Positions 3,602 to 26,345 are shown, numbered from the stretch's first letter. The stretch: DNA of 32,000 nt from Rhodobacter capsulatus SB 1003 (GCF_000021865.1 NC_014034.1:2010001-2042000); one strand, 5' to 3'. The notes: generated from the letters alone by a model not told the origin. Made by a program: numbers and translations.

Positions 3602-3792
3602 GCAGCCCTCCCCGGCCCGGCGCCCTGCGGCGCTTGCGCATTCGTGATCTTTGCGCCCTTCAATGGCGTGAACTTTGTCGAAATGCCATATATAATCTTG
3701 CCAGCGCGACGTTTCGGCGGCATCCCCGCAGCAAGTCAGGCCAAAGCCGGTGCAGACGGTCGCAAACGAGCATAAGACAAGAAAGCAAAATC

Positions 3793-5610: not shown

Positions 5611-6563
5611 TCCCGATGCTGCCGCGCGAAAGGATCGCCGTCTTCCTGGAGGCGCAGGCCGCCGAGGCCGGGGCGGCGCGCAACACCATTGCCGCCTATG
5701 GCCGCGATCTGAGCGATTTTCTGGACTTCACCACGGCGAAGGGCCTTGATCTGATCACGCTGGATCGCGCCGCGGTCGAGGACTGGCTGGTCCGGCTCGA
5801 GGCCGAGGGGCTGGCGAAAGCGACCCGGGCGCGCGCGGCTCTCGGCGGTGAAGCAATTCTACCCGCTTCGCCTATGACGAGGGCTGGCGGGCGGACAACC
5901 CCGACCCTGCAGATCTCGGGGCCGGGCAAGGCGCAGCGGCTGCCGAAAACGCTGAGCATCGAGGAGGTCGAGGCGCTTCTGGAGGCCGGGCGCGATCAGG
6001 GCCGCAGCCCGGCCGAGCAGATCCGCAACCGCTGCCTGATGGAGCTGCTTTACGCCACCGGCATGCGGGTGAGCGAGCTGGTCGGCCTGCCGGTGGCGGC
6101 GGCGCGCGGCAATCCGGCGATGCTGATGGTGCGCGGCAAGGGCGACAAGGAACGGATGGTGCCGCTCTCCGCCCCGGCGCGCGAGGCGCTGGCAGCCTGG
6201 CTCGCCACCCGTGACGCCGCCGAGGAGGCGGCGCGGATCGCCCGCCGTCTGCCGCCCTCGCGCTTTCTGTTCCCGTCCTCGGGCAAGGAGGGGCATCTGA
6301 CGCGGCAGGGATTTCATGCGCTTTTGAAGGATATCGCGCTGGCGGCGGGGCTCGACCCGGCGCGGGTGACGCCGCATGTGCTGCGCCATGCCTTTGCCAC
6401 GCATCTGCTGCAGGGCGGCGCCGATCTGCGGGTGATTCAGACGCTTCTGGGCCATGCCGATCTGTCCACCACCGAAATCTACACCCATGTGCTGGAGGAG
6501 CGGCTGAAGGATCTGGTGCTGGGCCATCACCCGCTGGCCCGCCGCGCCGATCCGCAAGCTTGA
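5607..6563 (+). CDS. xerD: Site-specific tyrosine recombinase XerD (with an internal scrambled segment, see findings)
   Basis: Catalytic domain motifs ATGMRVSELVGL, HVLRHAFATHLL, LLGHADLSTTEIYTHV. The N-terminal core-binding domain is present except for residues encoded by about 5835-5903. Confidence 0.9.
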   Translation: MIPMLPRERIAVFLEAQAAEAGAARNTIAAYGRDLSDFLDFTTAKGLDLITLDRAAVEDWLVRLEAEGLAKATRARAALGGEAILPASPMTRAGGRTTPTLQISGPGKAQRLPKTLSIEEVEALLEAGRDQGRSPAEQIRNRCLMELLYATGMRVSELVGLPVAAARGNPAMLMVRGKGDKERMVPLSAPAREALAAWLATRDAAEEAARIARRLPPSRFLFPSSGKEGHLTRQGFHALLKDIALAAGLDPARVTPHVLRHAFATHLLQGGADLRVIQTLLGHADLSTTEIYTHVLEERLKDLVLGHHPLARRADPQA

Positions 6564-8986: not shown

Positions 8987-10135
8987 CTAGCCGATCAGCG
9001 GCGCGGCCCCGCCATAGGTTTCGTCATAATGGCGCTTGAGCCGCATCAGCGCGATGCGCAGCACGATCTTGCCCGAACGCGCCGACCAGCCCATGCGCTT
9101 TTCCGCCGTCTCGAGCCCTTCCAGAAAACAGCAGCACCGCAGCACCATGTCGCCCAGGCCCGGCCCGAGGTCGCAAAGCGCCGCCGCCACCCGTTCCCGG
9201 GCGCGGTCAGAGCCGCCCGGACCGCCATGGCCCAGCTCGGGCCGATACTGCCCGCGGGCGCCGCCGGTCATGAAGCGTTCCCAGTTCTGCGCCACCCGCG
9301 GCCCCATCTGCGCCAGTTCGAAATCCTCGCGCAGCCGTTCCCCCGCCGCCACCAGATCGGGCGAGAGGAACGGCCGCCCGTCGCTGTCGCGCCGCCGCGC
9401 CAGCACCCCAAGCGGGCTTTCGGCCAGGTTCATCCGCATCCGCGTCACCCGGCCCTGCCCCTCGTTCACCGTGCGCTCGCCCCAGTCGCGGTGACGGTCG
9501 GCATGCGGGTTGTCCGCCGCCGTCGCGGGGTCGCGTCCCGCGGTCAAGGCCTCCGCTTCCAACAGCCGCTTCAACGCCGCCCGCCCGGTGGCGGACAGCT
9601 CGTAGCTGGTCACCCGCCCGCTGTGCTGCACCAAGATCCAGCCGTTCAGCGCAAAGCCCTGCGCCACCTCGCGCGCCACCACCGCCGTGCGCACCGTGCC
9701 CCGCAACACCACCGCCTTTTCCATGTCGGGCGCGATGATCAGCAGCGCCCCCGGCTCCGCCAGCCGCCGCAGCACCCGCCGCCCCTCGCGCGAAAGCGTC
9801 GCGATATCCGGGCTGTCGGGGTCTTCGGCGGCTTCGGGGCAGGCTTGCGGCGCAGTCGGGCGGATCGGAGCGGTCATCGCAGGGTCATCCTCTCTGGGCG
9901 GGGCGGCAGATGCGGCGGCGGCAAAGCGGCCAAGCCGGGTCAGGGCTTCGTCAACAAGCGGATCGTCGCGGCGCTGCTCGATCCGGCGCACCCGGCGCAG
10001 GATGGTCGAGGCGTGACAGCCCTCCGCCCGCGCCAGCTGCCGGATCGGCACGCCCTCCTCGACGTGACGCAGATAAAGCCGTGCATGGTCGGGCAACCAG
10101 TCCGGCAGGCTCTCCCGATCTTGCATGGTCTTCAT
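8987..10135 (-). CDS. HTH + DUF6456 regulator, GafA-like architecture
   Basis: The track ORF starts at TTG 10189. ATG 10135 has the SD GGGAGA 6 nt upstream (ATG 10126 is also possible). N-terminal HTH ([24 protein letters not shown]), a Pro/Ala/Asp-rich linker, and a C-terminal region [20 protein letters not shown]...CCCFLEGLE...[13 protein letters not shown] that I recognise as DUF6456-type. Confidence 0.7.
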
Positions 10136-10204
10136 CTCCGGTCTCCCATCGACAGGCTGGCAGTCAGATAGCGCAAACGGCATCTGCAACCGTGGGTTGC
10201 TTTG

Positions 10205-10661: not shown

Positions 10662-10689
10662 CCCCGATCAGCGCGCCCCGATCAGCGCG
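10662..10689. repeat. Perfect 14-bp tandem duplication CCCCGATCAGCGCG x2
   Basis: 10662-10675 is identical to 10676-10689. The second copy contains the stop codon (10682-10684) of the HerA-like gene. Confidence 0.9.
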
Positions 10690-12229
10690 CCTTGAACAGC
10701 GAGCCCAGCACCCCGCGCACGATCTGCTGACCGGCCTTGCTGCCCAGCTGCCGCGCCAGCGACTTGCCGAAGACCTCGGCGATGCTGTCGCTGCGCGAGG
10801 CCGACCCGGCCGGTCGGCGCGGGGCTGCGGGCTGGGGCTGCGGGGCCTCGAACCGGCGGGCGCGGTTGAACTCCAGCTTCGCCGCGGCGCCCCCCGCGGC
10901 GGCTTCGGCACCGGCCTTTTGCATCCGTGCCGTCAGGATCTCGAAGGCCGAGGGCCGGTCCACCGCCTGATCATATTTCGCGCCGAGGGGCGAGGCCGCG
11001 CGCAGCGCCGCGCGTTCCCCGGCCTCGAGCGGGCCAAGCCGGGACTGCGGCGGGCGCACCAGCGTGCGCTCGACCATGCCGGGCACGCCCTTCGGCTCCA
11101 GAAACGAGGTCACCGCCTCGCCGGTGCCGACCTCGCGGATCGCGGTTTCGGTGTCGAAGCGCGGATTGGGGCGATAGGTCTCGGCGGCGCGTTTCAGATC
11201 CTTCTGATCGCGCGCGGTAAAGGCGCGCAGCGCATGCTGCACCCGGTTGCCCAGCTGGCCCAGGATGTCCTCGGGCACATCGGCGGGGTTTTGCGTGATG
11301 AAATAGATGCCGACACCTTTCGAGCGGATCAGCCGCGCCACCTGTTCGACCTTGTCCACCAGCGCCTTGGGGGCATCGTCAAACAGCAGATGCGCCTCGT
11401 CGAAGAAAAACACGAACCGCGGCCGCTCGGGGTCGCCGACCTCGGGCAGATCCTCGAAAAGCTCCGACAAGAGCCAGAGCAGGAAAGTCGCGTAAAGCCG
11501 CGGGCTGCTCATCAGCCGGTCGGCGGCCAGAATGTTGACACGGCCGCGCCCGTCCGGCGCCAGCGTCATCATGTCGGCGAGATCAAGCGCCGGTTCGCCG
11601 AAAAACTGCGCCGCGCCCTGATTTTCGAGGATCAGCAGCTGGCGCTGGATCGCCCCCACCGACTCGGCCGAGATATTCCCGTAGCGCAGTTTCAGCTCGG
11701 CCGCGCGTTCGCCCACATGCACCAGCATCGCCCGCAGATCGGCCAGATCCAGCAGCGCCAGCCCCTCGGCATCGGCCAGATGAAAGGCGATGTTCAGCAC
11801 GCCTTCCTGCGCCTCGCTCAGATCAAGCAGCCGTGCCAGCAGCAAGGGCCCCATCTCGGTCACCGTCGTGCGTATCGGATGGCCCTGTTCCCCGAACAGA
11901 TCCCAGAACGTGACCGGACAGGCCCGGTAGGACAGATCATGGCCGATCGTGGCCGCACGTTTGCGAAACGCCTCGTGCAGCGGGCCGGTCTCGCTCCCCG
12001 CCGCGGCCAGGCCCGCAAGATCGCCCTTCACATCGGCCAGAAACACCGGAACCCCCGCGGCCGAGAAGCCCTCGGCCAGAACCTGCAGCGTCACCGTCTT
12101 GCCGGTGCCCGTCGCCCCCGCGATCAGCCCGTGCCGGTTGCCCGCCTTCAGCAGCAGCTCCTGCGGCTGGCGATATCCCTCGCCCCCGCCGCCGACGAAG
12201 ATCCCCGCCCCGGTCAGACCTGCGCTCAT
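10682..12229 (-). CDS. HerA-like ATPase, DUF853/YjgR family
   Basis: Start moved to ATG 12229 (MSAGLTGAGIFVGGG), preceded by GGGGGAA. Walker A GATGTGKT, Walker B-like FVFFFDEAHLLF. C-terminal Ala/Pro/Arg-rich tail. Confidence 0.88.
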   Translation of the reverse strand: MSAGLTGAGIFVGGGGEGYRQPQELLLKAGNRHGLIAGATGTGKTVTLQVLAEGFSAAGVPVFLADVKGDLAGLAAAGSETGPLHEAFRKRAATIGHDLSYRACPVTFWDLFGEQGHPIRTTVTEMGPLLLARLLDLSEAQEGVLNIAFHLADAEGLALLDLADLRAMLVHVGERAAELKLRYGNISAESVGAIQRQLLILENQGAAQFFGEPALDLADMMTLAPDGRGRVNILAADRLMSSPRLYATFLLWLLSELFEDLPEVGDPERPRFVFFFDEAHLLFDDAPKALVDKVEQVARLIRSKGVGIYFITQNPADVPEDILGQLGNRVQHALRAFTARDQKDLKRAAETYRPNPRFDTETAIREVGTGEAVTSFLEPKGVPGMVERTLVRPPQSRLGPLEAGERAALRAASPLGAKYDQAVDRPSAFEILTARMQKAGAEAAAGGAAAKLEFNRARRFEAPQPQPAAPRRPAGSASRSDSIAEVFGKSLARQLGSKAGQQIVRGVLGSLFKAR

Positions 12230-12317
12230 CCGTTCCCCCGTTGCTGCCCGGACCCGCTGTGGCCCGGCTCCCATGCGCCGCGAGAATACTTGTTTAACCC
12301 TTTTGTGCCAGTGTGGT

Positions 12318-12395
12318 TTCGTTCCGCTTCGGGCCCATTGGCCGCGGAACACTTCCTCCCTGTCAGACTGGCCGCGCCTTCGGGCGCGGTTTTTT
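12318..12395 (+). ncRNA. Candidate trans-acting sRNA with a CUUCCUCCCU (anti-SD-like) single-stranded stretch
   Basis: 5' hairpin GTTCCGC(12321-27)...GGCC-CATT-GGCC...GCGGAAC(12344-50). Then unpaired ACUUCCUCCCUGUCAGACU. Then an intrinsic terminator GCCGCGCC-TTCG-GGCGCGGT + T6 (12371-12395). No plus-strand gene lies upstream that it could terminate. The 5' end is not defined. Confidence 0.35.
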
Positions 12396-12451
12396 CGCTT
12401 TCGCGCGCAAGATCGGGACCAAAATCGCGCGCGGCCGATCATTTTTGCGTG

Positions 12452-12480
12452 TTGACCTGCGGGATATTCCGCACTAGCGT
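12452..12480 (+). promoter_or_regulatory. Sigma70-like promoter TTGACC-N17-TAGCGT
   Basis: TTGACC at 12452-12457, 17-nt spacer, TAGCGT at 12475-12480. Reads toward the IalB-family gene. Confidence 0.35.
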
Positions 12481-12511
12481 TTCCGCAATGACATAGTCGG
12501 CCAGTCCGGCA

Positions 12512-12559
12512 GGGGGAATACGGGGCTCCGGTCAACGGAGCCCTTCTTATTCGGCCCCC
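12512..12559 (+). terminator. Extended hairpin with U-tract (attenuator, or terminator of a short transcript)
   Basis: Inner stem GGGCTCCG(12523-30)/CGGAGCCC(12536-43), loop GTCAA, then TTCTTATT. An outer helix is possible: GGGGGAATA(12512-20) with TATT..CCCCC(12548-59). Lies about 30 nt downstream of the predicted promoter and 115 nt upstream of ATG 12675. Confidence 0.4.
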
Positions 12560-12674
12560 ATCCTCACGCAAGTTTCACCGCCCGCATCGGCCGCCGCGCC
12601 GGGACGGGCGCTTTTGCCCCTGACAGGCTTCGGGCGGCATGCTAAGGCGGCTCCATCCCCATGGAGGACATTTC

Positions 12675-13271
12675 ATGATCAAAAACACCGCTTCCCTTGC
12701 TCTTCTGCTGGCCGCCAGCCTTGCCGCGCCGATGGCCTTGGCCGAGGATGCCGCCGCCCCGGCACCGACCCCGGCGCCCGCGGCCGAAGCCTCCTCGCCC
12801 GCGGCTGAACCCGCCGCCGAGCCTGCCGCCGAACCCTATGTCAAGACCACGGAAGGCGACTGGAAAGTGCAGTGCATCCGCGTCGAAAGCGGTGACGAGC
12901 CCTGCGAGATGTTCCAGCTGCTGACCGACAAGGACGGCAACAAGGTCGCTTCGATCTCGGTTCTGGGGCTGCCGAAGGGCAAGGAAGCCGTGGCCGGGGC
13001 CACGATCGCGACGCCGCTCGAATCGGCGCTGACCGCCGGGGTGACGCTGCAGATCGACACGCAAAAGCCGATCACGCTGCCCTATTCCTTCTGCTCGCAG
13101 GTCGGCTGCTTCTCGAACGTGGTGCTGAAGGCGGCGGAACTTGACCTGTTCAAGAAGGGCAAGAAGATCGCCATGACCATCGTGCCGATGCGCGCCCCCG
13201 ATCAGAAGGTGGAGCTGGAAATCTCGCTCAAGGGCTTCAGCGCCGCCTGGGATGCGATGCAGCCGAAGTGA
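12675..13271 (+). CDS. Invasion-associated locus B (IalB) family periplasmic protein
   Basis: Start at ATG 12675, with SD GGAGGA at 12664-12669. Signal peptide MIKNTASLALLLAASLAAPMALA, Pro/Ala/Glu-rich spacer, and an IalB-type core (GDWKVQC...EPCEMFQ...SFCSQVGCF). Confidence 0.88.
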   Translation: MIKNTASLALLLAASLAAPMALAEDAAAPAPTPAPAAEASSPAAEPAAEPAAEPYVKTTEGDWKVQCIRVESGDEPCEMFQLLTDKDGNKVASISVLGLPKGKEAVAGATIATPLESALTAGVTLQIDTQKPITLPYSFCSQVGCFSNVVLKAAELDLFKKGKKIAMTIVPMRAPDQKVELEISLKGFSAAWDAMQPK

Positions 13272-13306: not shown

Positions 13307-13330
13307 GACGCCGCCTTTCGGGGCGGCGTC
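13307..13330. terminator. Hairpin between the convergent IalB gene and KAS gene
   Basis: GACGCCGCC (13307-15) / GGCGGCGTC (13322-30), 9-bp GC-rich stem. Flanking T content is modest on both strands. Confidence 0.5.
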
Positions 13331-14543
13331 ATGCTTTGGAAAGGATCAGCACCGCGTTCAGACCGCCAAAGGCAAAGGCATTGCTCATCACCGTGTCGAC
13401 CCGCGCCTGACGCGCCGTGCCGGGCACGACATCGAGCGGGCAGTCGGGATCGGCTGCGTCAAAGCCGAGCGTCGGCGCGATCACCCCGTCGTTCAACGCC
13501 ATCAGACAGGCCAGAAGCTCGATCGCCCCGGTGGCGCCGATGCAATGGCCGTGCATCGCCTTGGTGGAACTGACCGGAAGCCGCGGCAGATGCGCGCCGA
13601 AGATATCCGACAGCGCCGCCGCCTCGGTCTTGTCATTGGCCGCCGTGCCGGTGCCATGGGCGTTGACATATTCCACCGCCTCGGGCGGCAACCCGGCATC
13701 CGCAAGCGCCAGACGCATTGCCCGCGCCGCCCCCTCGCGCGAGGGCATGACGATGTCGCTTGCGTCCGAGGTCATGGCGAAGCCCTTGATCTCGGCCAGA
13801 ATCTCGGCGCCGCGGGCCTTGGCGCCTTCGAGCGTTTCAAGCACGAAGACGCCTGCGCCCTCGCCCTGCACCATGCCGTTGCGGCTGGCGCTGAACGGGC
13901 GGCAGCCGTCGGGCGACATCACCCGCAGCCCTTCCCAGGCCTTCAGCCCGCCGAAATTCAGCATCGATTCCGCCCCGCCCGCCAGCATGCCATCGGCGAG
14001 CCCCGCGCGGATCATCTGAAACGCCAGACCCAGCGCATGGTTCGAACTGGCGCAGGCCGTCGCCACCGCGAAACTGGGCCCCATCAGCCCGAATTCCATC
14101 GAAAGATGCGACGCCGCCGCATTGCCCATCAGCCGCGGCACGGTGAAAGGATGCACCCGGTTCTTGCCCTCGGCATAAACCGCGCGATAGGCCTCGTTCA
14201 CCGTCGCATTGCCGCCGCCCGCGGTGCCGATGATCGCACCCCAGCGGGTGTGATCACAGCTTTCCTGCGGCTGCCCCGCCTGCGCCATCGCCTGCCGCGC
14301 CGCGACCAGCGCGAATTGCGTGAAGCGGTCGTAAAGCGACAGCTTGCCCTTGTCGAAATGGCTTTCGGGGGCAAAGTCCCGCACCTGCGCGCCGATCCGG
14401 ATCGTCAGCCGCTCGACATCGGGAAAGTCGAGCGGCCCGATGCCGCACCGCCCCTCTGCCATCGCGGCGAAGGTGCCCTGCACATCCGGGGCCAGCGCAT
14501 TGACCGTTCCGGCCCCGGTGATGACGACACGTCTTTGGGTCAC
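13329..14543 (-). CDS. Beta-ketoacyl-ACP synthase (KAS I/II type, elongating)
   Basis: 404 aa. Cys-His-His triad contexts ATACASS, NAHGTGT, HGHCIGATG. The GTG start overlaps the ACP stop (GTGA). Confidence 0.93.
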   Translation of the reverse strand: MTQRRVVITGAGTVNALAPDVQGTFAAMAEGRCGIGPLDFPDVERLTIRIGAQVRDFAPESHFDKGKLSLYDRFTQFALVAARQAMAQAGQPQESCDHTRWGAIIGTAGGGNATVNEAYRAVYAEGKNRVHPFTVPRLMGNAAASHLSMEFGLMGPSFAVATACASSNHALGLAFQMIRAGLADGMLAGGAESMLNFGGLKAWEGLRVMSPDGCRPFSASRNGMVQGEGAGVFVLETLEGAKARGAEILAEIKGFAMTSDASDIVMPSREGAARAMRLALADAGLPPEAVEYVNAHGTGTAANDKTEAAALSDIFGAHLPRLPVSSTKAMHGHCIGATGAIELLACLMALNDGVIAPTLGFDAADPDCPLDVVPGTARQARVDTVMSNAFAFGGLNAVLILSKA

Positions 14544-14815
14544 GCCAGCGCCGCCTGCGGCCCCGAGATCAGCCGCTCGACCGCGCGCACGATCGCGCCG
14601 ACCGAGGAAATGTCGAACTCGCCTTGCGTCGGTTCGTTGGCGTTGAAGGGAACGGAAACCCCGAAGGTTTCCTCGATCGCGAAGATCATCTCGACAAGGC
14701 CGAGACTGTCGAGCCCCAACTCGTCAAGCGTCATGTCCGGGCGCACTTCCGCCGGTTCCATCGCAGCTTCGCGGGCGATGATCGAGAGAATCTTGTCCTG
14801 CACGTCGGGCCTCAT
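14540..14815 (-). CDS. Dedicated acyl carrier protein
   Basis: Start at ATG 14815 (MRPDVQDKILSII), 91 aa. Phosphopantetheine site DSL in LGLDSLGLVEM. Lies 7 nt after the LpxD-paralog stop. Confidence 0.88.
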   Translation of the reverse strand: MRPDVQDKILSIIAREAAMEPAEVRPDMTLDELGLDSLGLVEMIFAIEETFGVSVPFNANEPTQGEFDISSVGAIVRAVERLISGPQAALA

Positions 14816-14822
14816 CTGGCTG

Positions 14823-15923
14823 TTACTCCGTGCCCTTCTTCTGCGTGAGATTTGTAACAGTTTCCCGAAGTTCGGCCATTTGCGCAAAGAGTCGCGGCAG
14901 ACGGCGGATGTTCTTCCAGGCTTCGACATGGGTTTCCATCTTCACCGCCGGATAGCCGAGCAAAACCCGGCCCGCGGGGGCATTGGTGAAGATCTTGGTG
15001 GCGCCGCCCGCGATCACGTCATCGCCGATGAAGATATTGTCGTTCACCCCGCATTGGCCGCCCAGCACCACCCGGTCGCCGATGCGCGAGGAGCCCGCGA
15101 TGCCGACCTGACCGCAGAGCAGGCAGTCGCGGCCGATCTGCACATTGTGGCCGATGTGGACCAGGTTGTCGAGCTTGGTGCCCGAGCCGATCATCGTCGC
15201 CCGCACCGTGCCGCGGTCGATGCAGACATTGGCGCCCAGTTCCACATCATCGCCGATGACGACGGTGCCAAGGCTGTGAATCCGGGTCCAGCTTTGTTCG
15301 GTGATCGTGTCGCGCTGGCCCAATGTCTCGCGGATTTCCTCGACCCCGGATTTTTCCGGCGTGACGAAGGAAAACCCGTCGGCGCCGATCACCGCGCCGG
15401 GCTGGGCGATGAAACGATCGCCCACCACCACGCGGGCGCCGATCTTTACGCCTTGCAGAACAAGGGCTTCTTCGCCGATCTTCACATCCTCGGCAATGCA
15501 GGCATGGGCCGCGATCCGGGCCCGGTCGCCGATGCGGACGCCCCGCCCGATGACGACAAAGGGGCCGATGGCCGCCCCCGCGCCGATCTCGGCCGTGGGG
15601 TCGATGACGGCACTCGGATGGATGCCGGGCGCGATCTCGGGGCCGGGGTCGAAGGCCTTCGACAGCCCCGCCATGGCAAGCCGCGGCCGGGCGACAAAGA
15701 TCGCCGCCTTCAGCCCCAGCGCCTGCCAATCCGTGCCCTCGGGCAGGATCGCCGCCAGCGCCTGACCGGCGGCCAGCCCCGGGATGTATTTCGCGCTCAT
15801 CGCCAGCGCGATCTGCCGCGGCCCCGCCGATTGCGGCTCCGAAGCGCCCTCGATGGGCAGGGAAAGATCGCCTTCCGCACGCGCAGCAAGCGCCCGTGCA
15901 ATGGTTTCGACCGTCTGCGCCAT
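14823..15923 (-). CDS. LpxD-family UDP-3-O-acylglucosamine N-acyltransferase paralog
   Basis: 366 aa. LpxD-type N-terminal domain, hexapeptide-repeat left-handed beta-helix, catalytic His context HIGHNVQIG. There is an extra ~25-aa segment (PEKSGVEEIRETLGQRDTITEQSWTRIH) relative to the classical LpxD I know. It is not in the usual bamA-lpxD-fabZ-lpxA context. Confidence 0.85.
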   Translation of the reverse strand: MAQTVETIARALAARAEGDLSLPIEGASEPQSAGPRQIALAMSAKYIPGLAAGQALAAILPEGTDWQALGLKAAIFVARPRLAMAGLSKAFDPGPEIAPGIHPSAVIDPTAEIGAGAAIGPFVVIGRGVRIGDRARIAAHACIAEDVKIGEEALVLQGVKIGARVVVGDRFIAQPGAVIGADGFSFVTPEKSGVEEIRETLGQRDTITEQSWTRIHSLGTVVIGDDVELGANVCIDRGTVRATMIGSGTKLDNLVHIGHNVQIGRDCLLCGQVGIAGSSRIGDRVVLGGQCGVNDNIFIGDDVIAGGATKIFTNAPAGRVLLGYPAVKMETHVEAWKNIRRLPRLFAQMAELRETVTNLTQKKGTE

Positions 15924-15971
15924 GGATCTTGCCTCTCGTTGACCGGCGCCGTCCCGCGCCTCGTCCCCGAT

Positions 15972-17594
15972 TTAATTCGTCAGCGGCGCCAATGCCACCC
16001 CCGCCTTGTCCAAAGCGGCAAAGAGCGCGGCATCCCGCCCGTAGACATCGTCACGATATTCGATCCGGCCCTGGGCATTCGGGAAGGCGGTGAAATAGAC
16101 CAGATGCACCGGCACCGGATCGCGCAGCTTCACCGTCGTCTCGGCGCCGGTCTTCAGCACCGATTTGAAATAGCCCTCGGGGTCGGCTTCCTGCGCGGCC
16201 AGAAGCGCATAGGCCAGATCGAAGGGCCGACCGACCCGGATGCAGCCATGGCTGAAGGCGCGGACATCCTTTTGAAACAGGGATTTCGACGGCGTGTCAT
16301 GCAGATAGATGTTGTAGGGATTGGGGAAGAGGAACTTCACCAACCCCAGCGCATTGCCGTTCGAGGGCGGCTGACGCATCGCAAAGGGGAAGTTGCGCGC
16401 GTTATAGGCGGCGAAATTCACCGACTCGCGCGCCACCGCCCGGCCCCGGCTGTCGACCAGCTGGATATGCCCCGCCGCGCCCGGATTGCGCTGCATCATC
16501 GGCAGATATTCCTTGACCGTGATCGAGCGCGGCACCGACCAGCTCGGGTTGATCACCATCATCTCCATCACGTCGGAAAATTCCGGCGTGCGGCGGTCGC
16601 CCTGGTTCATGCCGACCACGGTCACCGTCTCGAAGCTCATCTTGCCGTCATCGACGATGCGGGCGGTGAAATCGGGCAGGTTCACCCAGATGTGCCGCTT
16701 GCCCAGATCGAGGCCGTTCATCCAGCGCAGCCGCTCCAGCGCCACAAGGATCGATTTCATCCGCTCCTCGGGGGTGCGGTTGATCCGCGCCAGCGTACCC
16801 TCGCCCGCGACGCCATCGGCCTTGATCCCCTGATCCAGCTGATAGGTCTGCACCGCCCGGTGCAGATCGCCGTCATAGGTCGCGCTGACCGAACGGCGCA
16901 GATAGCCCATGCGGATCAGCCGGTCGCGCAGCGCGATGACGCCCGGGCCGCTGTCGCCCGGGCCAAGCCGCTTCGCCGCGACTTCGGGGCCCCAGCCGCC
17001 CGTGGCGATCTCGGCCTGCAGATCAAGCCGCGCCTTGACCAGCGCCGCATAGCGCGGCGATTTCGGCGCCAGATCGCGCAGGAACCGTGCCGGCGCAGGG
17101 CTGGCAAGCAGCCCGTTCAAAAGCGCCTGCGGATCGGGGCGGCGGATCTCGCGCACGATCCCGGCATCAATCTTCTTCGGCTCGAGCGCGCCCGAGGAAA
17201 TGTCCCGCGCCCAAGCGAGATAGGCCAGCGACATCGCCGCATCCAGCTGACCGCGTTCGCGTTCGGTCTCGATCGCGGCGAACCGGGCGCGCAGCTCCTC
17301 GGCGCGATAGCGCGCCACCGGCAGGCCATTGGCATCGGCCTGATCCAGCGCGGCAAAGAAGGCCGCCCGCCGCGACGCGGCCTCGGCGGTGGTCCAGAGC
17401 GGCGCATGGCCACGCGCGGCATAAAAGGCGGCCAGCGCGGGCTCGGCCGCCGCCGTTTCCGCCACCGCCTGGGCAAAGCCCGAAAGCATCTGCGCCCGGG
17501 CCGGACCCGCCGCCACAAAGGGCGCCAGCGCCGCCCCGGCCATCATCATCGCAACAAGGGCAGCCCGGCCAACCCCAAGACAAGATGCAGTCAT
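15972..17594 (-). CDS. L,D-transpeptidase, YcbB/LdtD-like (PG-binding + YkuD domains)
   Basis: Start at ATG 17594 (MTASCLGVGRAALVAMMMAGAALAPFVAAGPARA, a signal peptide). PG-binding region (LRDRLIRMGYL...VQTYQLDQGIKADGVAG). YkuD catalytic SHGCIRV. Confidence 0.9.
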   Translation of the reverse strand: MTASCLGVGRAALVAMMMAGAALAPFVAAGPARAQMLSGFAQAVAETAAAEPALAAFYAARGHAPLWTTAEAASRRAAFFAALDQADANGLPVARYRAEELRARFAAIETERERGQLDAAMSLAYLAWARDISSGALEPKKIDAGIVREIRRPDPQALLNGLLASPAPARFLRDLAPKSPRYAALVKARLDLQAEIATGGWGPEVAAKRLGPGDSGPGVIALRDRLIRMGYLRRSVSATYDGDLHRAVQTYQLDQGIKADGVAGEGTLARINRTPEERMKSILVALERLRWMNGLDLGKRHIWVNLPDFTARIVDDGKMSFETVTVVGMNQGDRRTPEFSDVMEMMVINPSWSVPRSITVKEYLPMMQRNPGAAGHIQLVDSRGRAVARESVNFAAYNARNFPFAMRQPPSNGNALGLVKFLFPNPYNIYLHDTPSKSLFQKDVRAFSHGCIRVGRPFDLAYALLAAQEADPEGYFKSVLKTGAETTVKLRDPVPVHLVYFTAFPNAQGRIEYRDDVYGRDAALFAALDKAGVALAPLTN

Positions 17595-17783
17595 TCTGTC
17601 CCCGCCACAGAAAAGCAGCTTGCAACCTGTGGGAAAACCGGGGCCAAGTCCACCCCGCACAGGGTTTCGCCGGGGCTTTCCCCGCCTCTGCGGGCGCGAC
17701 AGATGCAAACCGGCCACAGCCCCCGGCTCTGGCAAGAAATTGCCGACAGGTCCGGTTTTCCCTACCCGCGGAAAAATGACAAT

Positions 17784-17813
17784 TTGAAACACGATTCGCT
17801 TCGTGCCATAAGA
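17784..17813 (+). promoter_or_regulatory. Sigma70-like promoter TTGAAA-N17-CATAAG upstream of the mepK-like gene
   Basis: TTGAAA at 17784-89 and CATAAG at 17807-12, within a locally AT-richer stretch. Confidence 0.3.
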
Positions 17814-17922
17814 TTGCCACGGAATCCGGGTAAGTCCGGATCAAGCCGCAAACTCAGACGGCACAGACCGAGGGACAGGCGAACCGATATGGGCACGATC
17901 ACGACTTCTCGTCGCGGGCTTC

Positions 17923-18450
17923 TTGCGGCCTTTTGCTGCCACGCTTGTGGTAGCAGCCCCGAAAGCCTCCAACGCCTTCAGCTTCCTGCGCGGCGCTGGC
18001 GATATCCGTCGGATCCACATGTATTCCGGCCGCACCGGCGAAAGCCTCGACACGATCTACTGGATCGAGGGCGAATATATCCCCGAGGCGCTGAAGGAAA
18101 TCACCCGCTTCATGCGCGACTGGCGCACCAATGACGTGAAGACGATCGATCCGCGCACCGTCGATATTGCCGCCGCCTCGCATCGTCTGCTCGACACCTC
18201 CGAACCCTATATGCTGCTGTCGGGCTACCGGTCGCCCGCGACCAATGCGATGCTGCGCTCGCGTTCGGGCGGGGTGGCGCGCAATTCGCTGCACATGCGC
18301 GGGATGGCGGCGGATCTGCGGCTGAAATCGCGCTCGGTCGGGCAGATCTATTCCGCCGCGCTGTCGTGCCATGCGGGCGGCGTCGGCAAATATGCGCGCT
18401 CGGATTTCGTGCACATGGATTGCGGCAACATCCGCAGCTGGCAGGGCTGA
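17923..18450 (+). CDS. DUF882 / peptidase M15A, YcbK(MepK)-like murein endopeptidase (the N-terminus looks frame-disrupted)
   Basis: Zinc-ligand contexts HMRGMAADL and FVHMD. The track ORF starts at TTG 17923. A twin-arginine leader [15 protein letters not shown] is encoded from ATG 17889 in the adjacent frame (see findings). Confidence 0.85.
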
Positions 18451-18758: not shown

Positions 18759-19979
18759 TCAGGCCAGAAGCTCGTGGCAAAGCTCCAGCGCCGAGACCAG
18801 CGCATCGACCTCCTCGGTGGTGTTGTAAAGCCCGAACGAGGCCCGCGCCGTCGCCGTCAGCCCCAGATGCGCCATCAGCGGCATCGCGCAATGCGTCCCC
18901 GCCCGCACCGCCACGCCGCGCTTGTCGAGAATCGTCGAGATGTCATGCGCATGCGCCGGACCATCAAGGGTCATCGAAAAGATCGCCCCCTTGTCCCTGG
19001 CGTTGCCCTGAATATGCAGCCAGTTCAGGCCCTTGAACTTCGCTTCCGCATAGGCGCGCAAGGCGGCCTCATGCGCGGCGACATTCTGCATGCCCAGCCC
19101 CATCAGATAGTCGAGCGCCACCCCAAGGCCGACCTGCTGCACGATCCCGGGGGTGCCCGCCTCGAATTTCACCGGCGCGCTGTTGTAGGTGACGGCATCG
19201 CGACTGACCGTGGCGATCATGTCGCCGCCGCCGAGGAAGGGCCGCATCTCCTCCATCCGGTCGCGCCGGATGTAGATCGCGCCCGAGCCGCTCGGCCCGT
19301 AAAGCTTGTGCCCGGTGATGGCGTAGAAATCGCAGCCCAAATCGGCGACATCGACCGGCGCATGCACCGCGCCCTGCGAGCCGTCGACCAGCACCGGCAC
19401 GCCCCTTTCGCGCGCCCCCGCGCAGATCGTCTTCACGTCAACGGCGGTGCCCAGCACGTTCGACATCTGGGTGATCGCCACCAGCTTCGTGCGCGGCCCG
19501 ATCGCTTCCAGCACCTTTTCCGCGGGCAGGCTGCCGTCGGGCTCGATCTCGACCCATTTCAGCACCACCCCCTGCCGTTCGCGCAGGAAATGCCAGGGCA
19601 CGATATTGGCGTGATGCTCCATGATCGAGAGCACGATCTCGTCGCCCGGCTGCAGCCGCGGGGCGGCCCAGGCGTAAGACACCAGGTTGATCCCCTCGGT
19701 CGAGCCGGTGGTGAAGACGATCTCTTCCTCGGAAGGGGCGCCCAGAAACCGCGCGATGATGCCGCGCACGGCTTCGTAACGCTCGGTCGAGATATTCGAA
19801 AGGGTGTGCAAGCCCCTGTGCACGTTGGCATAATCCTGCGTGTACATCTGCGTCATCGCCTCGATCACGCAGGCGGGCTTTTGTGCCGAGGCGCCATTGT
19901 CCAGATAGACGAGCGGCCTGCCGTTCACCTGCCGCGACAGGATCGGAAAATCGGCGCGGATCCGTGCGACATCGTACAT
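18759..19979 (-). CDS. sufS: Cysteine desulfurase SufS (group II)
   Basis: Start at ATG 19979 (MYDVARIRADFPIL). PLP Lys in ITGHKLYGPSG, catalytic Cys in RAGTHCAMP. Confidence 0.95.
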   Translation of the reverse strand: MYDVARIRADFPILSRQVNGRPLVYLDNGASAQKPACVIEAMTQMYTQDYANVHRGLHTLSNISTERYEAVRGIIARFLGAPSEEEIVFTTGSTEGINLVSYAWAAPRLQPGDEIVLSIMEHHANIVPWHFLRERQGVVLKWVEIEPDGSLPAEKVLEAIGPRTKLVAITQMSNVLGTAVDVKTICAGARERGVPVLVDGSQGAVHAPVDVADLGCDFYAITGHKLYGPSGSGAIYIRRDRMEEMRPFLGGGDMIATVSRDAVTYNSAPVKFEAGTPGIVQQVGLGVALDYLMGLGMQNVAAHEAALRAYAEAKFKGLNWLHIQGNARDKGAIFSMTLDGPAHAHDISTILDKRGVAVRAGTHCAMPLMAHLGLTATARASFGLYNTTEEVDALVSALELCHELLA

Positions 19980-19987
19980 TCTGTTCC

Positions 19988-20578
19988 TCAGCTTTCCGTC
20001 AAAAGAGCGGGGCTGAGCCCCGTCGCAAGAAGGCCCGAGCCGATCAGCATCGCCGAGCCGAAGAAAACCACAAGCACCCCGGCCCCGGTCAGCATCAGGT
20101 TTTCGAACCCGTGCAGCGCCGCGGTGAACAAGGTGATCAGCCACAAAAGCACGCCGAAAAGCGCCAGCGTCATCAGCACGCCGATGATCGGAAACAGCAG
20201 CATCACCGCCGCCTGCACCAGCTGCGCGCCCAGCATGATCGCCTGAATCCAGACCATCAGCGCGAAGGCCTCGCCAAACCGGCCCTGCCCGCCGAACTGA
20301 CGTCCGAAAAAGGCCATGGCAAAGGCGGAATACAGCAGCAGGCCGCCCTGTATCGCCGCCATCAGAAAGGGCGAGGCCGCCGGTCCCAGATCGATGCCGG
20401 TGATCAGGGAAAACAGGATCTCGCTGAGCAGTCCCAGCGCCGCGCCCGCCGCGATCACCGCGCCGAAAGCCAGCCAGCGCGCCGAGGGACGGTCCAGCAG
20501 CCGCGTCACCCGAGCCGCCGCCGTCGCCGGATCGACAAAACTCAGGCGCACCAGCTGCAGATAAAGCGCAAGGGTCAT
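19988..20578 (-). CDS. Yip1-like polytopic membrane protein inside the suf operon
   Basis: Start at ATG 20578 (MTLALYLQLVRLSF), 196 aa with about 5 hydrophobic segments. Its ATG overlaps the upstream stop (ATGA). Its stop lies 8 nt before the sufS ATG, within GAGGAA. Confidence 0.8.
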   Translation of the reverse strand: MTLALYLQLVRLSFVDPATAAARVTRLLDRPSARWLAFGAVIAAGAALGLLSEILFSLITGIDLGPAASPFLMAAIQGGLLLYSAFAMAFFGRQFGGQGRFGEAFALMVWIQAIMLGAQLVQAAVMLLFPIIGVLMTLALFGVLLWLITLFTAALHGFENLMLTGAGVLVVFFGSAMLIGSGLLATGLSPALLTES

Positions 20579-21063
20579 GTGCGGCCCTCGAACTGGGTCA
20601 CCCGCAGACCGGCGCCCCAGATCACCGCGAAGACCGCAAAGACGACCGCCGCGACCGCATTCGCCTGCGGCCCCGGCCCGATCATGCCCTGGGTCAGCCC
20701 CTGCAGCAGCATCAGCGGCGAGACCGCGAAAAGCGCCCAAAAAAGCGCCAGCCTGCCGCCGTAACCATCGCCCCGGCCGCGGAAAAGCCGGGTGATCTGG
20801 GTGACCAGAAAGGCCAGCGCGTAAAAGAACGGCGTCGTCGCCGCCAAGGCCAGCGCCGTGCCCAGAAACAGGCCCGGCATCGGCACATCCGGCGTCTGGA
20901 AATGCTGCCGCGCCAGCGCGGGCCATTGCGCCACGAACATCAGCAGCAGCGCCGAGAACAGAAAGCTGAACAGCCGCGGTTCCGACCGCATCCGCGCCAG
21001 ATGGTCCCGGATCACGACGCGCGGGCGCCGGTAGCTGCGCAGGATGTCTTCGACCGCGGCCAT
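20575..21063 (-). CDS. Polytopic membrane protein (Yip1-like) inside the suf operon
   Basis: 162 aa with about 4 hydrophobic segments. SD GGAGAGAG lies between the sufD stop and ATG 21063. Confidence 0.75.
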   Translation of the reverse strand: MAAVEDILRSYRRPRVVIRDHLARMRSEPRLFSFLFSALLLMFVAQWPALARQHFQTPDVPMPGLFLGTALALAATTPFFYALAFLVTQITRLFRGRGDGYGGRLALFWALFAVSPLMLLQGLTQGMIGPGPQANAVAAVVFAVFAVIWGAGLRVTQFEGRT

Positions 21064-21073
21064 GTCTCTCTCC

Positions 21074-22345
21074 TCAGTCCCTGTGCCGCGACAGCCAGGT
21101 TTCCAGCCGCGCGACGATCTCTTCCTTCAGCCCCGCATCCTCGATCTCGTCGATGGCATCGGCAAGGAAGGACAGGACCAGCAAGCCCTTGGCCTCTTCC
21201 TCGGGAACGCCGCGCGAGCGCAGGTAGAAAAGCGCCGTCTCGTCGATCGCCCCGGTGGTCGAGCCATGCGAGCATTTCACGTCATCGGCATAGATCTCGA
21301 GCTCGGGCTTGGCAAGGAACTGACTGTCGTCATCGAGCAGAAGCGACTGGCTGATCTGATAGCCGTCGGTCTTCTGCGCGCCGGGTTTGACCAGGATCTT
21401 GCCCTGAAACGTGCCGATGGCGCCGTGTTTGAGCACTTTCTTGAACACCTGACGGCTTTCGCAGCGCAGCCCCGCATGGGTGACGAAGACGGTGTCGTCA
21501 TGCAGGAAGGCCCCGGTCGCCCCGTCGCCAAGCGCGGCCCCCGCAACATGGGCCACCGCGTCATTGCCGATAATCTCGATTACCGCTTCGTTACGGGTCA
21601 GCGCGCCGTTCACAGTGACGGTAAAGCTTTTGAACAGCGCCTTTTCGGCGACCCGGGCAAAGATGTGGGTGATGGCGCGGCGCTCGCTGTCGGGGCCCTG
21701 CGCGCGGATGTGATGAAAGCGCGCCCCCGCACCGACATCGACCTCCATCACCTTGTTGAACCGCGCCCCGGCCGGGCCGGTCTCCAGAAGCGTCAGCTCC
21801 GCCCCCGGATCCAGCTGCACCAGATGATGCAGGATCGGATCGGAAGCCTCTGATTTATGCACATAAATCAGATTGATCGGCTTTGCGGCCGCGGCCGTCA
21901 CCCGGATCAGGACGCCATCCGTCGCCCGCGACGTATTGAGCGCCGCGAAAGGCCGTTTCACCGGATCCTGCCCCGCGGCTTCCAGCGCGCCGTAAAGCGG
22001 TTCCGCCCAGCCCGGGATCTTGTCGGCAAGACGCGCGATTTCGACCCCGGACAGCGTCAGATCATCCGAGGCCGCCGCATCGAAAACGCCATCGACGAAG
22101 ACGATCTTCACTCGATCAAGCGCATCGAAGAGCGGGGCTTCCTCCTCCTCGGCCGCTTGCGCGGCTGCCGGAGTGACCGCATTCAGCGCCGCCGGGTCGG
22201 TCCAGCGCCAGTATTCGTCGCGCCGACCGGGCAGGCCCATCGCCTCAAGACGCGCCAGCGCCGCCGCCCGCGGCCCGGCCAGACCCGGCCCGGCAGCCAG
22301 GCCCGAAACCCGCGCCGCAACGATTTCCTCTTTCGTCGCCATCAC
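21074..22345 (-). CDS. sufD: Fe-S cluster assembly protein SufD
   Basis: 423 aa with a SufB/SufD-family beta-helix C-terminus. The GTG at 22345 or the ATG at 22342 overlaps the sufC stop. Confidence 0.93.
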   Translation of the reverse strand: MMATKEEIVAARVSGLAAGPGLAGPRAAALARLEAMGLPGRRDEYWRWTDPAALNAVTPAAAQAAEEEEAPLFDALDRVKIVFVDGVFDAAASDDLTLSGVEIARLADKIPGWAEPLYGALEAAGQDPVKRPFAALNTSRATDGVLIRVTAAAAKPINLIYVHKSEASDPILHHLVQLDPGAELTLLETGPAGARFNKVMEVDVGAGARFHHIRAQGPDSERRAITHIFARVAEKALFKSFTVTVNGALTRNEAVIEIIGNDAVAHVAGAALGDGATGAFLHDDTVFVTHAGLRCESRQVFKKVLKHGAIGTFQGKILVKPGAQKTDGYQISQSLLLDDDSQFLAKPELEIYADDVKCSHGSTTGAIDETALFYLRSRGVPEEEAKGLLVLSFLADAIDEIEDAGLKEEIVARLETWLSRHRD

Positions 22346-23109
22346 TTCGCCTCCGTCAGCCCATGCGCCGCGAGGATCTCGGCATAGCCGTTCTTCTCGA
22401 CTTCCAGCGCCAGATCGGGGCCGCCGGTCTGCAGGATGCGGCCATCGGCCATGATATGCACGACATCGGGCTGAATGTGATCCAGAAGCCGCTGATAGTG
22501 TGTGATCACAAGGAAGCTGCGCCCTTCCGACCGCAGCGCATTGACCCCCTCCGACACCAGCCGCATCGCATCGACATCAAGACCCGAGTCGGTCTCGTCC
22601 AGAATGCACATCTTCGGTTCCAGCATCGCCATCTGCAGGATCTCGTTGCGCTTTTTCTCCCCGCCCGAGAAACCGACATTGACCGGCCGCTTCAGCATCT
22701 CGGCGTCGATCTTCAGCGATTTCGCCTTGTCGCGCACGAGCTTCAGGAATTCGCCGGCCGAAAGTTCGTCAATCGCCCGCGCTTGCGTGCGATTGAGCGC
22801 GGTGCGCAGGAAGGTCATGTTGCCGACGCCGGGGATCTCGACCGGATATTGGAAAGCGAGGAACAGACCGGCCGCCGCCCGCGCCTCGGGCTCCATGTCC
22901 AGCAGCTCCTGCCCCTGCAGCTTCGCCGAGCCCGCAGTGACGGTATAGCCCGGACGGCCCGCCAGCACATAGCTCATCGTCGACTTGCCGGAGCCGTTCG
23001 GCCCCATGATCGCATGCACTTTGCCCGTCTCGACCGTCAGGTTCATCCCCTTCAGAATGACCTTTTCGCCTTCTTCAAGTTTGACGTGCAGATTGTTGAT
23101 TTCAAGCAT
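22342..23109 (-). CDS. sufC: Fe-S cluster assembly ATPase SufC
   Basis: 255 aa. Walker A GPNGSGKST, ABC signature FSGGEKKR, Walker B ILDETDSGLD. Confidence 0.97.
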   Translation of the reverse strand: MLEINNLHVKLEEGEKVILKGMNLTVETGKVHAIMGPNGSGKSTMSYVLAGRPGYTVTAGSAKLQGQELLDMEPEARAAAGLFLAFQYPVEIPGVGNMTFLRTALNRTQARAIDELSAGEFLKLVRDKAKSLKIDAEMLKRPVNVGFSGGEKKRNEILQMAMLEPKMCILDETDSGLDVDAMRLVSEGVNALRSEGRSFLVITHYQRLLDHIQPDVVHIMADGRILQTGGPDLALEVEKNGYAEILAAHGLTEAK

Positions 23110-23139
23110 TTTTTCGTCCTTGCGGTCAGCGGCGCCAGG

Positions 23140-23733
23140 TCAGTTCGGGCGCAGATAGGTGGAAAGGATGAGGCCAAGTTTCTCGGCCGGGATGGCGGTG
23201 GGGGTCAGATGGAATTCGGCCATGCGCCCGATCGTGCGGGTGGGCGGGCAGAAGCTTTCCATCAGGTGATAGCCGGGACGCAGCGTATAATCATCCCAAA
23301 GCACGGTTACCGGACGCGTGATCCGGAACAGCGTGGTCAGGAAACAGGCGGCACGGAAACGCCCGTCGATCAGCACAAGATCGGGGTGCAGGAAATCGGG
23401 CCGGTCCCAGACCCCGATCGGATAAGAGGGCCATTGCCGGAAGGCTTCCGTATCCTTCGGCGCCCCCCAGTCCTTGGTCGGCCCGACATCGCCGTGATGC
23501 AGCACCAGCCGCGCTTTCGGCGGGTTGGCATCGAACCAGCTGCGCATCATCGCCAGCCAGTCGGCATCGCTTTCGACCGAGAACACCACCTTGCCGGGCA
23601 TCTCGGCCGCCAGCGCCGTCGACCCGCCCGAGCCATATTCCAGGATCACCCCGGCCGCGGCACAGGCCGCCCCCAAAGCCTCGGCCTCGGCCTCGGGCAG
23701 GGTCAGTTTCGGCCGTTCGATCCGGGGGCGCAT
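23140..23733 (-). CDS. Class I SAM-methyltransferase-like protein embedded between sufB and sufC
   Basis: Start at ATG 23733, with GAGGTGG 6 nt upstream just after the sufB stop. Motif I-like VILEYGSGGST, followed by an acidic VESD. 197 aa. Confidence 0.7.
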   Translation of the reverse strand: MRPRIERPKLTLPEAEAEALGAACAAAGVILEYGSGGSTALAAEMPGKVVFSVESDADWLAMMRSWFDANPPKARLVLHHGDVGPTKDWGAPKDTEAFRQWPSYPIGVWDRPDFLHPDLVLIDGRFRAACFLTTLFRITRPVTVLWDDYTLRPGYHLMESFCPPTRTIGRMAEFHLTPTAIPAEKLGLILSTYLRPN

Positions 23734-23743
23734 CGCCGCCACC

Positions 23744-25258
<1,515 letters not shown>

Positions 25259-25277
25259 CGTCTTTTCCCCTTCCGCG

Positions 25278-26345
25278 TCAGCGCCTTGCGCGGTGCTTTT
25301 CATATGCGGCCCGCCATGTGTCGGCAAAGCGCAAGATCTCGTCCCGTCCGATCCCCGGCCCCAGCGACACCCGGATCGCGGATCCCGCCTGCTCGTCGGA
25401 CCAGCCCATCGCACGCAACACCTTGCTTGCGCGGACCTTGCCCGAGGAACAGGCCGAACCCGCCGATACCGCATGGCCCGCAAGGTCCATGCGCATCACC
25501 TGAGTCTCGCCTTTCCAGCCCGGAGCGATCACCGAAAGCGTGTTGGGCAGGACCTGTGGCCGCCCAGCCGTTTCCCCTTCCGGCGTCTCCCATCCCGGAA
25601 AATAGACTTCTTTCGTCGGGAATTCCAGTGCCTCTTTTAGAATATCTCTAACTTCCGCAACTTCCGCCCACACGCCCCGTGCCAAGTCGGCCGCCGCCGC
25701 CTCGGCCGCCGCGCCGAAACCGGCAATGCCGATGAGGTTTTCCGTGCCCGCGCGTCGCCCCATCTCCTGCCCGCCGCCTTTCAGCACCGACGCAATCTCC
25801 GTGCCACGGCGCAGCACCAGCGCCCCGATCCCCTTCGGTCCGCCCAGTTTATGGGCGGAAATGAAACCGCAAGTGACCTCCAACCAGTTGAAAGCCATGG
25901 GCAGCTTGCCGAAAGCCTGGGTCAGGTCGGCCGCCCAGAGGCCCGCAGGCATATCCTGAATCACCCCGGTTTCGGAATTGGCCAGCTGCAACGTCGCGCG
26001 GCCCGGATCAGCCACAGCCACCCGCCCGAAGCCATCGACCGGCAGCGTATCGGCACACCAGGCCGCCACCGCATCATGCTCGATGGCCGCACAGGCGCAG
26101 CCCCGACCGGCCAGCGCCAGCCCCGCCGCCTCGGTCGCGCCCGAGGTGAAGACGATATCCGCCCCCTCCGCCCCCAAAGCCGCCGCCACCTGCGCGCGGG
26201 CTTTTTCCATCAAGGGCTTGGGCGCGCGGCCCTCGGCATGGACCGAAGACGGATTGCCCACGACCTCCATCGCCGCAATCATCGCCGCCCTCGCCTCCGG
26301 GCGCAGCGGCGTCGTCGCGTTCCAGTCGAGATAAGCCCGCGTCAT
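25278..26345 (-). CDS. Cysteine desulfurase, group I (NifS/IscS-like)
   Basis: Start at ATG 26345 ([14 protein letters not shown]). PLP Lys in [10 protein letters not shown]. Catalytic loop SAGSACSSG. Confidence 0.9.

Follow-up and report, generated by a model that had tools for sequence, protein, structure and literature searches.

In the NodF/NodE system, a dedicated acyl carrier protein (ACP) and a FabF-like β-ketoacyl-ACP synthase (KAS) make polyunsaturated chains for Nod factors, and the special chain is transferred by NodA and becomes amide-linked to a glucosamine nitrogen. The AcpXL/FabF1XL-FabF2XL/LpxXL system of Rhizobia has a similar design, in which a specialised ACP and a dedicated KAS feed a special chain to a lipid A acyltransferase; this module is dispensable and has no ketoreductase of its own, two features that recur in the genes described here. 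AcpXL and LpxXL act in rhizobial lipid A (PMC4402001). These two systems are the nearest functional precedents for an lpxD-acp-kas cassette located in a 32,000-nucleotide stretch of the Rhodobacter capsulatus SB 1003 chromosome (NC_014034.1:2010001-2042000; hereafter the window, with positions counted from its first letter). The cassette belongs to neither: it lacks the remaining genes that define them, and its partner is an early, essential enzyme, the lipid A N-acyltransferase LpxD. In the rhizobial system, by contrast, the chain is received by LpxXL, a late acyltransferase, and a FabZ-XL dehydratase and an alcohol dehydrogenase are encoded in the cluster as well, whereas the window cassette adds only an ACP and one KAS to LpxD. 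Assignment to the AcpXL system failed, as no AcpXL-type dehydratase, dehydrogenase or LpxL-family gene was found in the neighbourhood of the cassette. The NodF/NodE system differs from the cassette in its polyunsaturated product and its NodA transferase, and the window locus has neither nod genes nor a symbiosis context. A further comparison is offered by Francisella, where the variants LpxD1 and LpxD2 set which N-acyl chain enters lipid A (PMC4402001). Francisella relies on a pair of LpxD enzymes whose chain-length rulers differ and has no dedicated ACP or KAS, whereas the gene tables of R. sphaeroides point to a single copy here. As the best-supported reading of the cassette, held at somewhat less than even probability, the ACP and the KAS would together act as an accessory module that provides the acyl donor for LpxD, and LpxD would transfer the 3-oxo-C14 chain unreduced.

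The three genes are encoded on the minus strand, as an initial annotation of the window had proposed, and ORFs were found at the coordinates that it gave. The first, lpxD (14823..15923), encodes a UDP-3-O-acyl-glucosamine N-acyltransferase of 366 aa with matches to TIGR01853, PF04613 and Hexapep; the second (14540..14815), contained within a longer mechanical open reading frame (ORF), encodes a dedicated, divergent ACP of 91 aa (PF00550); and the third (13329..14543) encodes a FabF/NodE-like elongating KAS of 404 aa (PF00109 and PF02801). Direct reading of the sequence showed that the lpxD stop codon TAA is separated from the ACP start codon ATG by the 7-nt spacer CAGCCAG (14816..14822, minus strand), that a GGAG lies inside the 3′ end of lpxD ahead of the ACP start, and that the ACP stop overlaps the GTG start of the KAS in the tetranucleotide GTGA at 14540-14543, so that both the 7-nt gap and the GTGA overlap described initially are present. 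A scan restricted to one genome per species yielded 80 Rhodobacterales loci, all close relatives of the query, with LpxD identities from 59% to 97%. The genera covered were Rhodobacter, Cereibacter, Rhodovulum, Dinoroseobacter, Litoreibacter, Haematobacter and Lentibacter, together with streamlined pelagic isolates, and the nearest locus was that of R. capsulatus DSM 1710 (identity of 97% for LpxD, 99% for ACP and 96% for KAS). The LpxD shares 96-97% identity with R. capsulatus proteins, and the entire neighbourhood runs collinear with R. capsulatus chromosomes. In every locus with enough contig (78/78), lpxD was followed by the ACP gene and then by the KAS gene; ACP and KAS genes overlapped or abutted and the gap between lpxD and the ACP gene was shorter than about 90 nt. 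The tight packing that had been noted in the window is a property of the whole set. Conservation of this extent is far beyond chance and argues for functional coupling of the three products. The link between the cassette and lipid A N-acylation is stronger than originally proposed, as it is order-wide and the pair always stands directly behind lpxD.

The LpxD-family assignment was confirmed by a score of 283.1 bits on the TIGR01853 equivalog model (cut-off 242.5) over residues 8-347, by the PF04613 and Hexapep matches and by full-length alignment with the LpxD structures 2IU8, 3PMO and 3EH0. The N-terminal uridine-binding domain, the left-handed β-helix and the C-terminal helix were all recovered (PF04613, Hexapep, the 2IU8 alignment and an AlphaFold2 model), which makes it the same three-domain protein as the canonical E. 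coli LpxD (3EH0, 4IHF). The roles of individual residues follow a structural review (PMC6286764) and were mapped by alignment, with E. coli numbering. The catalytic His239 corresponds to His259 here and is invariant in 80/80 orthologues, the oxyanion Gly257 is kept as Gly277, Asp232 is also conserved and the R. sphaeroides orthologue is essential; judged by these residues, the enzyme is complete and catalytically intact. In contrast to the E. coli protein, the cassette LpxD is encoded outside the lpxD-fabZ-lpxA cluster, has an ACP and a KAS of its own behind it, and departs at several contact positions. Phe41, which stacks on uracil in E. coli, and His276, which contacts the α-phosphate (PMC6286764), are replaced by Leu40 (Leu, Val or Ile in the orthologues) and Asn296; the Asn is invariant in 80/80 Rhodobacterales orthologues, whereas a more distant Xanthobacteraceae protein, described below, keeps His. 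Arg293 of E. coli LpxD pairs with Glu41 of ACP, and Met290 and Met292 are ruler residues (PMC6286764). In the cassette LpxDs, the position of Arg293 is occupied by Thr or Ser (Thr313 here), that of Met290 by Lys (Arg or Asn in two genomes) and that of Met292 by Phe (Met or Val in two genomes). There is also a loop insert relative to the LpxDs of E. coli, P. aeruginosa and C. trachomatis, for which the initial annotation had estimated about 25 aa; the insert is real, and alignment gives it about 19 aa (residues K191-E209; 15297..15353, minus strand). It follows the GADGF184SF motif and begins a few residues after the equivalent of E. coli F183, the backbone of which contacts bound hydroxymyristates (PMC6286764). 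The AlphaFold2 model is of moderate quality, with a predicted local distance difference test score (pLDDT) of 73.8 overall and below 50 in the insert loop (183-218), which the model does not resolve. Such lineage-specific substitutions and the insert, close to the acyl and ACP sites, would be in keeping with a shifted preference for donor or carrier.

The next question was whether this enzyme is an additional LpxD, as the initial annotation had assumed in calling it a paralog, or the only one. In R. sphaeroides the order of genes is RSP_2774 (1611 bp), RSP_2775 encoding LpxD (1092 bp), RSP_2776 encoding ACP (267 bp), RSP_2777 encoding KAS (1209 bp) and RSP_2778 encoding invasion protein B (PMC5513736), and both this order and the gene sizes match the window and the Cereibacter sphaeroides locus. 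Transposon sequencing (Tn-seq) of R. sphaeroides recovered zero insertions in RSP_2775 in every condition, whereas 9 were recorded in the ACP gene RSP_2776, 36.5 in the KAS gene RSP_2777 and 57 in another neighbour (PMC5513736). RSP_2775 is also the only gene annotated as UDP-3-O-(3-hydroxymyristoyl) glucosamine N-acyltransferase among the table entries listed in that study (PMC5513736). The cluster in which lpxD would be expected consists in R. sphaeroides of RSP_2711 (bamA), RSP_6204 (outer-membrane protein), RSP_2712 (fabZ), RSP_2714 (lpxA), RSP_2715 and RSP_2716 (lpxB), and the gene tables list no lpxD between skp and fabZ of this bamA-skp-fabZ-lpxA-lpxI-lpxB cluster (PMC5513736). Searches by tblastn with E. 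coli LpxA and FabZ against all of the approximately 90 loci collected matched only the lpxD genes themselves. The neighbours of the locus bear out the observation that lpxD stands outside its lpxD-fabZ-lpxA context and, on the basis of the R. sphaeroides cluster, lpxD has moved out of the bamA-skp-fabZ-lpxA cluster in Rhodobacterales. The LpxD of the window is most likely, by orthology, the sole and essential lipid A N-acyltransferase of this Rhodobacter, and the ACP and the KAS are dispensable accessories in R. sphaeroides, where both genes tolerate insertions. The check that had been suggested, a canonical lpxD elsewhere in the genome, came out against the paralog: the fabZ-lpxA cluster of R. 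sphaeroides has none and RSP_2775 is the sole annotated LpxD. This was named from the outset as an outcome that would undo the paralog framing, and it does so; in our view it leaves the proposed chemistry standing. The form first suggested, in which an extra LpxD beside a canonical one adds only keto chains, is accordingly highly improbable: the unusual gene context and the insert would suit it, and the Xanthobacteraceae trio described below might be such a second copy, but the R. sphaeroides orthologue is essential and the only one annotated, and the protein passes the LpxD equivalog cut-off. Synthesis of another N-acyl aminolipid, the alternative offered in the initial annotation, was considered unlikely because the acyltransferase is the essential sole LpxD. 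Under the proposed chemistry, a single LpxD would have to take both the dedicated donor and the housekeeping 3-hydroxyacyl-ACP.

The two accessory proteins proved to be distinct from their housekeeping counterparts. The dedicated ACP of the initial annotation was recovered as a 91-aa phosphopantetheine-binding protein (PF00550, 48 bits) whose phosphopantetheine serine, Ser37, lies in a DSL motif of which the Asp-Ser is invariant in 69/69 orthologues. All housekeeping AcpP models remained below their cut-offs, the best reaching 39.2 bits against a cut-off of 71, its structural matches in the PDB include NodF and a 'specialized ACP', and R. sphaeroides has a separate and essential AcpP (RSP_2463). 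By these profile comparisons the protein is not the housekeeping AcpP. The same applies to the condensing enzyme, in which the predicted Cys-His-His elongating ketosynthase was found with both ketoacyl-synthase domains and the triad Cys164/His296/His333. Beyond the triad it has the positions equal to FabF Lys335 (Lys328) and to the gating Phe400 (Phe392), and Cys164, His296, Lys328, His333 and Phe392 are invariant in 74/74 orthologues. The enzyme passed the PRK07314 subfamily model (416 bits, cut-off 387) and found its best structure match in the FabF structure 1J3N (9e-97), but it scored 431.6 bits on the fabF equivalog TIGR03150, under the cut-off of 493.75. In R. sphaeroides an essential FabF is encoded separately (RSP_2464), and by its scores the cassette KAS is FabF-like and not the housekeeping FabF. 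RSP_2776 alone, the orthologue of the ACP gene, is reported as a member of the RpoH(I) regulon (PMC3441632), which may point to an internal promoter, responsive to stress, that lies within lpxD or behind it. The position of RSP_2776 in that table suggests the heat-shock RpoHI set.

Amide-linked 3-oxo acyl chains (3-oxo-14:0) have been reported in the lipid A of R. sphaeroides and R. capsulatus and also in Ectothiorhodospiraceae (Spiribacter, Halorhodospira) (PMC5923411). No gene assignment for 3-oxo lipid A was found in the literature searched, in line with what the initial annotation had supposed, and a search on RSP_2775-2777 returned nothing beyond a regulon list. In the proposed mechanism, the decarboxylating KAS would condense an acyl primer of about C12 with malonate on the dedicated ACP to give 3-oxo-C14-ACP, in which the chain would be bound to a carrier poorly handled by the housekeeping FabG and FabZ. 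LpxD would then move the unreduced 3-oxo-C14 chain to the 2-amino group of UDP-3-O-acyl-glucosamine, giving the amide-linked 3-oxo-14:0, whereas 3-OH-14:0 would derive from the housekeeping 3-hydroxyacyl-AcpP, or from a reduction that is partial or comes later, and would serve as the fallback if the module were lost. N-acyl transfer from a 3-oxoacyl-ACP is chemically ordinary, as LuxI-type acyl-homoserine lactone (AHL) synthases move a 3-oxoacyl group from acyl-ACP to an amine before reduction by FabG. The resemblance is mechanistic only, and LuxI differs in its unrelated fold, its other acceptor and its use of the housekeeping ACP pool. The donor model accounts for the dispensability of the module, for the clade known for the trait and for the direct product chemistry of a KAS. 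The finding that the ACP and KAS genes are dispensable and lpxD is not fits the predicted fallback to 3-OH-14:0, and the cassette occupies a clade known for amide-linked 3-oxo-14:0, which fits the model as well. No FabG or FabZ homologue was detected by family searches among the flanking genes of the cassette (MepK, L,D-transpeptidase, IalB and HerA-like), and tblastn with E. coli FabZ and FabG against about 90 loci, including the 80 Rhodobacterales LpxD loci, gave no adjacent match. The neighbourhood is therefore as free of reductase and dehydratase genes as had been claimed for the cassette. That the Rhodobacter-type keto chains originate from the ACP-KAS pair, with 3-oxo-C14 reaching the sole LpxD unreduced on its private carrier, is put forward tentatively and at well below even probability. 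In this equally tentative view, the acyloxyacyl position would obtain its hydroxylated chain from a housekeeping donor or by later reduction.

Several observations weigh against this proposal. The NodF/NodE and AcpXL/FabF-XL modules also have no FabG of their own and borrow the housekeeping one, for which reason a missing reductase gene says little about whether the product remains a ketone. In the lipid A of R. sphaeroides and R. capsulatus, moreover, the keto group is on the N-acyl chain without a secondary acyl chain. The same placement is seen in Spiribacter (PMC5923411), and so regular a pattern is explained at least as well, and at least as simply, by oxidation or reduction after transfer. 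In E. coli LpxD, Asp232 takes a hydrogen bond from the acyl β-hydroxyl and Gln236 is a second β-hydroxyl ligand (PMC6286764). The equivalent of Asp232 is invariant in all 80 orthologues, which argues at the level of conserved residues that 3-hydroxyacyl donors are still accepted. The position of Gln236 is His here and is variable among the 80 orthologues (His in 65, Gln in 11 and Met in 4), while the LpxD of Pseudomonas has Met there though its donor is a 3-hydroxyacyl chain. Because Asp232 is kept and the Gln236 position varies, the active site leaves the choice of donor undecided. A related trio also occurs in an uncultured lineage of Xanthobacteraceae for which no keto lipid A is known, and the statement that LpxD is the sole copy was established in R. 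sphaeroides and carried to R. capsulatus by orthology. The product chemistry of the KAS and the donor choice of LpxD are, on this evidence, putative. An alternative is that the module supplies a private 3-hydroxyacyl pool, in which the KAS and the ACP would build the C14 chain, FabG would reduce it, LpxD would take (R)-3-OH-C14 from the dedicated carrier and a later oxidation would give the ketone. This reading, which we regard as unlikely, agrees with the invariant β-hydroxyl-binding Asp232, with the placement of the keto group in Rhodobacter and Spiribacter, with the use of the housekeeping reductase by the NodFE and AcpXL systems and with the fact that the ACP and the KAS are dispensable. 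The advantage of such a pool would be to shield the lipid A N-acyl supply from competition by FabZ and FabA, and the oxidation would take place at the free 3-OH of the N-linked chains. It meets with the difficulty that a candidate lipid A dehydrogenase is neither known nor seen near the cassette, and it leaves the match between the cassette clade and the keto-chain clade unexplained. Of the original interpretation, then, an intact cassette tied to lipid A N-acylation has held, whereas LpxD is not an extra copy and the argument from the missing reductase is weak.

The relatives of the cassette outside Rhodobacterales bear on a different explanation, namely that the ACP-KAS pair serves another envelope lipid and merely shares an operon with lpxD. 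A search with the KAS against representative proteins returned giant multi-ketosynthase polyketide synthases (PKSs) as its top matches, and the single-domain matches were sorted by name and context. The closest of these (46-60% identity) belong to ACP-KAS pairs that carry the JGI label 'nodulation protein E', some of which are distant members of the same LpxD cassette (locus L084). Other pairs, with 46-52% identity, occur without LpxD, beside a PAP2 phosphatase and glycosyltransferases, or a PKS with a short-chain dehydrogenase/reductase (SDR), near a Kdo hydroxylase, or alone. Their existence, and the listing of the ACP alone in the RpoH(I) regulon (PMC3441632), would speak for a role in another lipid, for which the candidates are an unsaturated secondary acyl chain made for a late acyltransferase, as AcpXL does for LpxXL, or a lipid other than lipid A. 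Such a role is given a low probability, as the lpxD-acp-kas adjacency is invariant across the whole order, with overlapping or near-abutting frames. Unsaturated C12:1 and C14:1 chains, besides, are normal intermediates of the FabA/FabB route. It is also the whole trio, and not the pair alone, that recurs in Xanthobacteraceae, where metagenomic genomes encode in series a 354-aa LpxD (291 bits, above the equivalog cut-off), an 86-aa ACP and a 407-aa KAS. This LpxD is 40% identical to that of the window and, in a 7.2-Mb genome, the trio lies between tyrS-anmK and suf genes. The suf genes are within a few kb of the trio both in the window (18759-25483, starting about 2.8 kb from lpxD) and in the Xanthobacteraceae locus L090 (11608-17065). 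This common proximity suggests that Alphaproteobacteria have had the trio for a long time, in an old and shared chromosomal position. It may be, as a corollary of the keto-chain reading, that LpxDs of the cassette type represent a second, old lineage of the enzyme in Alphaproteobacteria, placed close to suf, which took over from the canonical copy in Rhodobacterales. Among the pairs without LpxD, two loci are recorded here as observations of their own. In the metagenomic locus L086 (4403-7985) and in L087, an ACP-KAS pair with 50% identity is directly followed by a short-chain dehydrogenase, a PKS of more than 2500 aa adjoins it, and upstream of the pair is a 427-aa protein with a faint acetyltransferase signal only; a version of the module carrying its own reductase thus exists. 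In locus L082 (5607-10320), a pair with 52% identity lies about 2.4 kb from a Kdo hydroxylase gene (PF11004) and may be another use of the ACP-KAS module related to lipopolysaccharide.

The lipid A of Rhodobacter is a natural antagonist of Toll-like receptor 4 (TLR4) that served as the model for E5531 and eritoran (PMC5923411, PMC4402001), and amide-linked 3-oxo-14:0 is a structural hallmark of it. The cassette provides two concrete, non-essential candidate genes for the 3-oxo trait, directly behind the essential lpxD. It would also be the first instance in which an acyltransferase early in the Raetz pathway has a carrier protein and a condensing enzyme of its own. The LpxD as such is a routine annotation, in contrast to its relocation and its coupling to a dedicated ACP and KAS. 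Even if the keto model fails, the order-wide relocation and the coupling are undescribed in the literature searched, and they concern the envelope biology of a major clade of marine and model organisms.

With regard to the surroundings of the cassette, a gene for a YcbB-type L,D-transpeptidase (ldt; 15972..17594, minus strand; PF20142, PF01471 and PF03734) shares the strand of lpxD, ends 48 nt upstream of it and is possibly the first gene of the lpxD operon; its start was set at the Met that gives 540 aa, matching the R. capsulatus gene call. The gene was present upstream of lpxD in every locus having upstream sequence. A MepK-type peptidoglycan L,D-endopeptidase gene (17923..18450, plus strand; NF053624, 208 bits against a cut-off of 185) is divergent from the ldt-lpxD unit, and on the 3′ side the unit is bounded by a gene for an IalB-family protein (12639..13271, plus strand; PF06776), convergent with the KAS gene and equivalent to RSP_2778. 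The order mepK / ldt-lpxD-acp-kas / ialB is common to the Rhodobacterales loci, with IalB downstream usually, in most loci. Scans for promoters and terminators gave signals no higher than the shuffled background. An antisense open frame of 1529 aa (13545-18134, plus strand) spans the KAS, ACP, LpxD and transpeptidase genes; its low-complexity composition, rich in Arg, Gly, Pro and His, looks like an artefact of the 65% G+C content and not like a gene. Downstream of the cassette there are genes, assigned by family matches, for a HerA-C-type ATPase (10682..12571, minus strand) and for a DUF6456 protein with a helix-turn-helix (HTH) domain (8987..10189, minus strand), both of which are kept in many Rhodobacterales loci. 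The mechanical ORF of the HerA-like ATPase exceeds the R. capsulatus gene call by about 100 aa, which makes its start uncertain.

Two further regions of the window drew attention. A 658-aa ORF at 3634-5610 (plus strand), which has no Pfam match, lies where the G+C content of the window is highest (0.70-0.71) and overlaps by 4 nt the start of a gene for a tyrosine recombinase with XerC/XerD-like domains (5607-6563, plus strand). On the other side, AT skew rises to a spike of 0.44 at 20001-21000, against values below 0.17 elsewhere on that side; the region encodes small hydrophobic proteins between sufS and sufD, and a weak Yip1-domain gene occupies this position in R. capsulatus.

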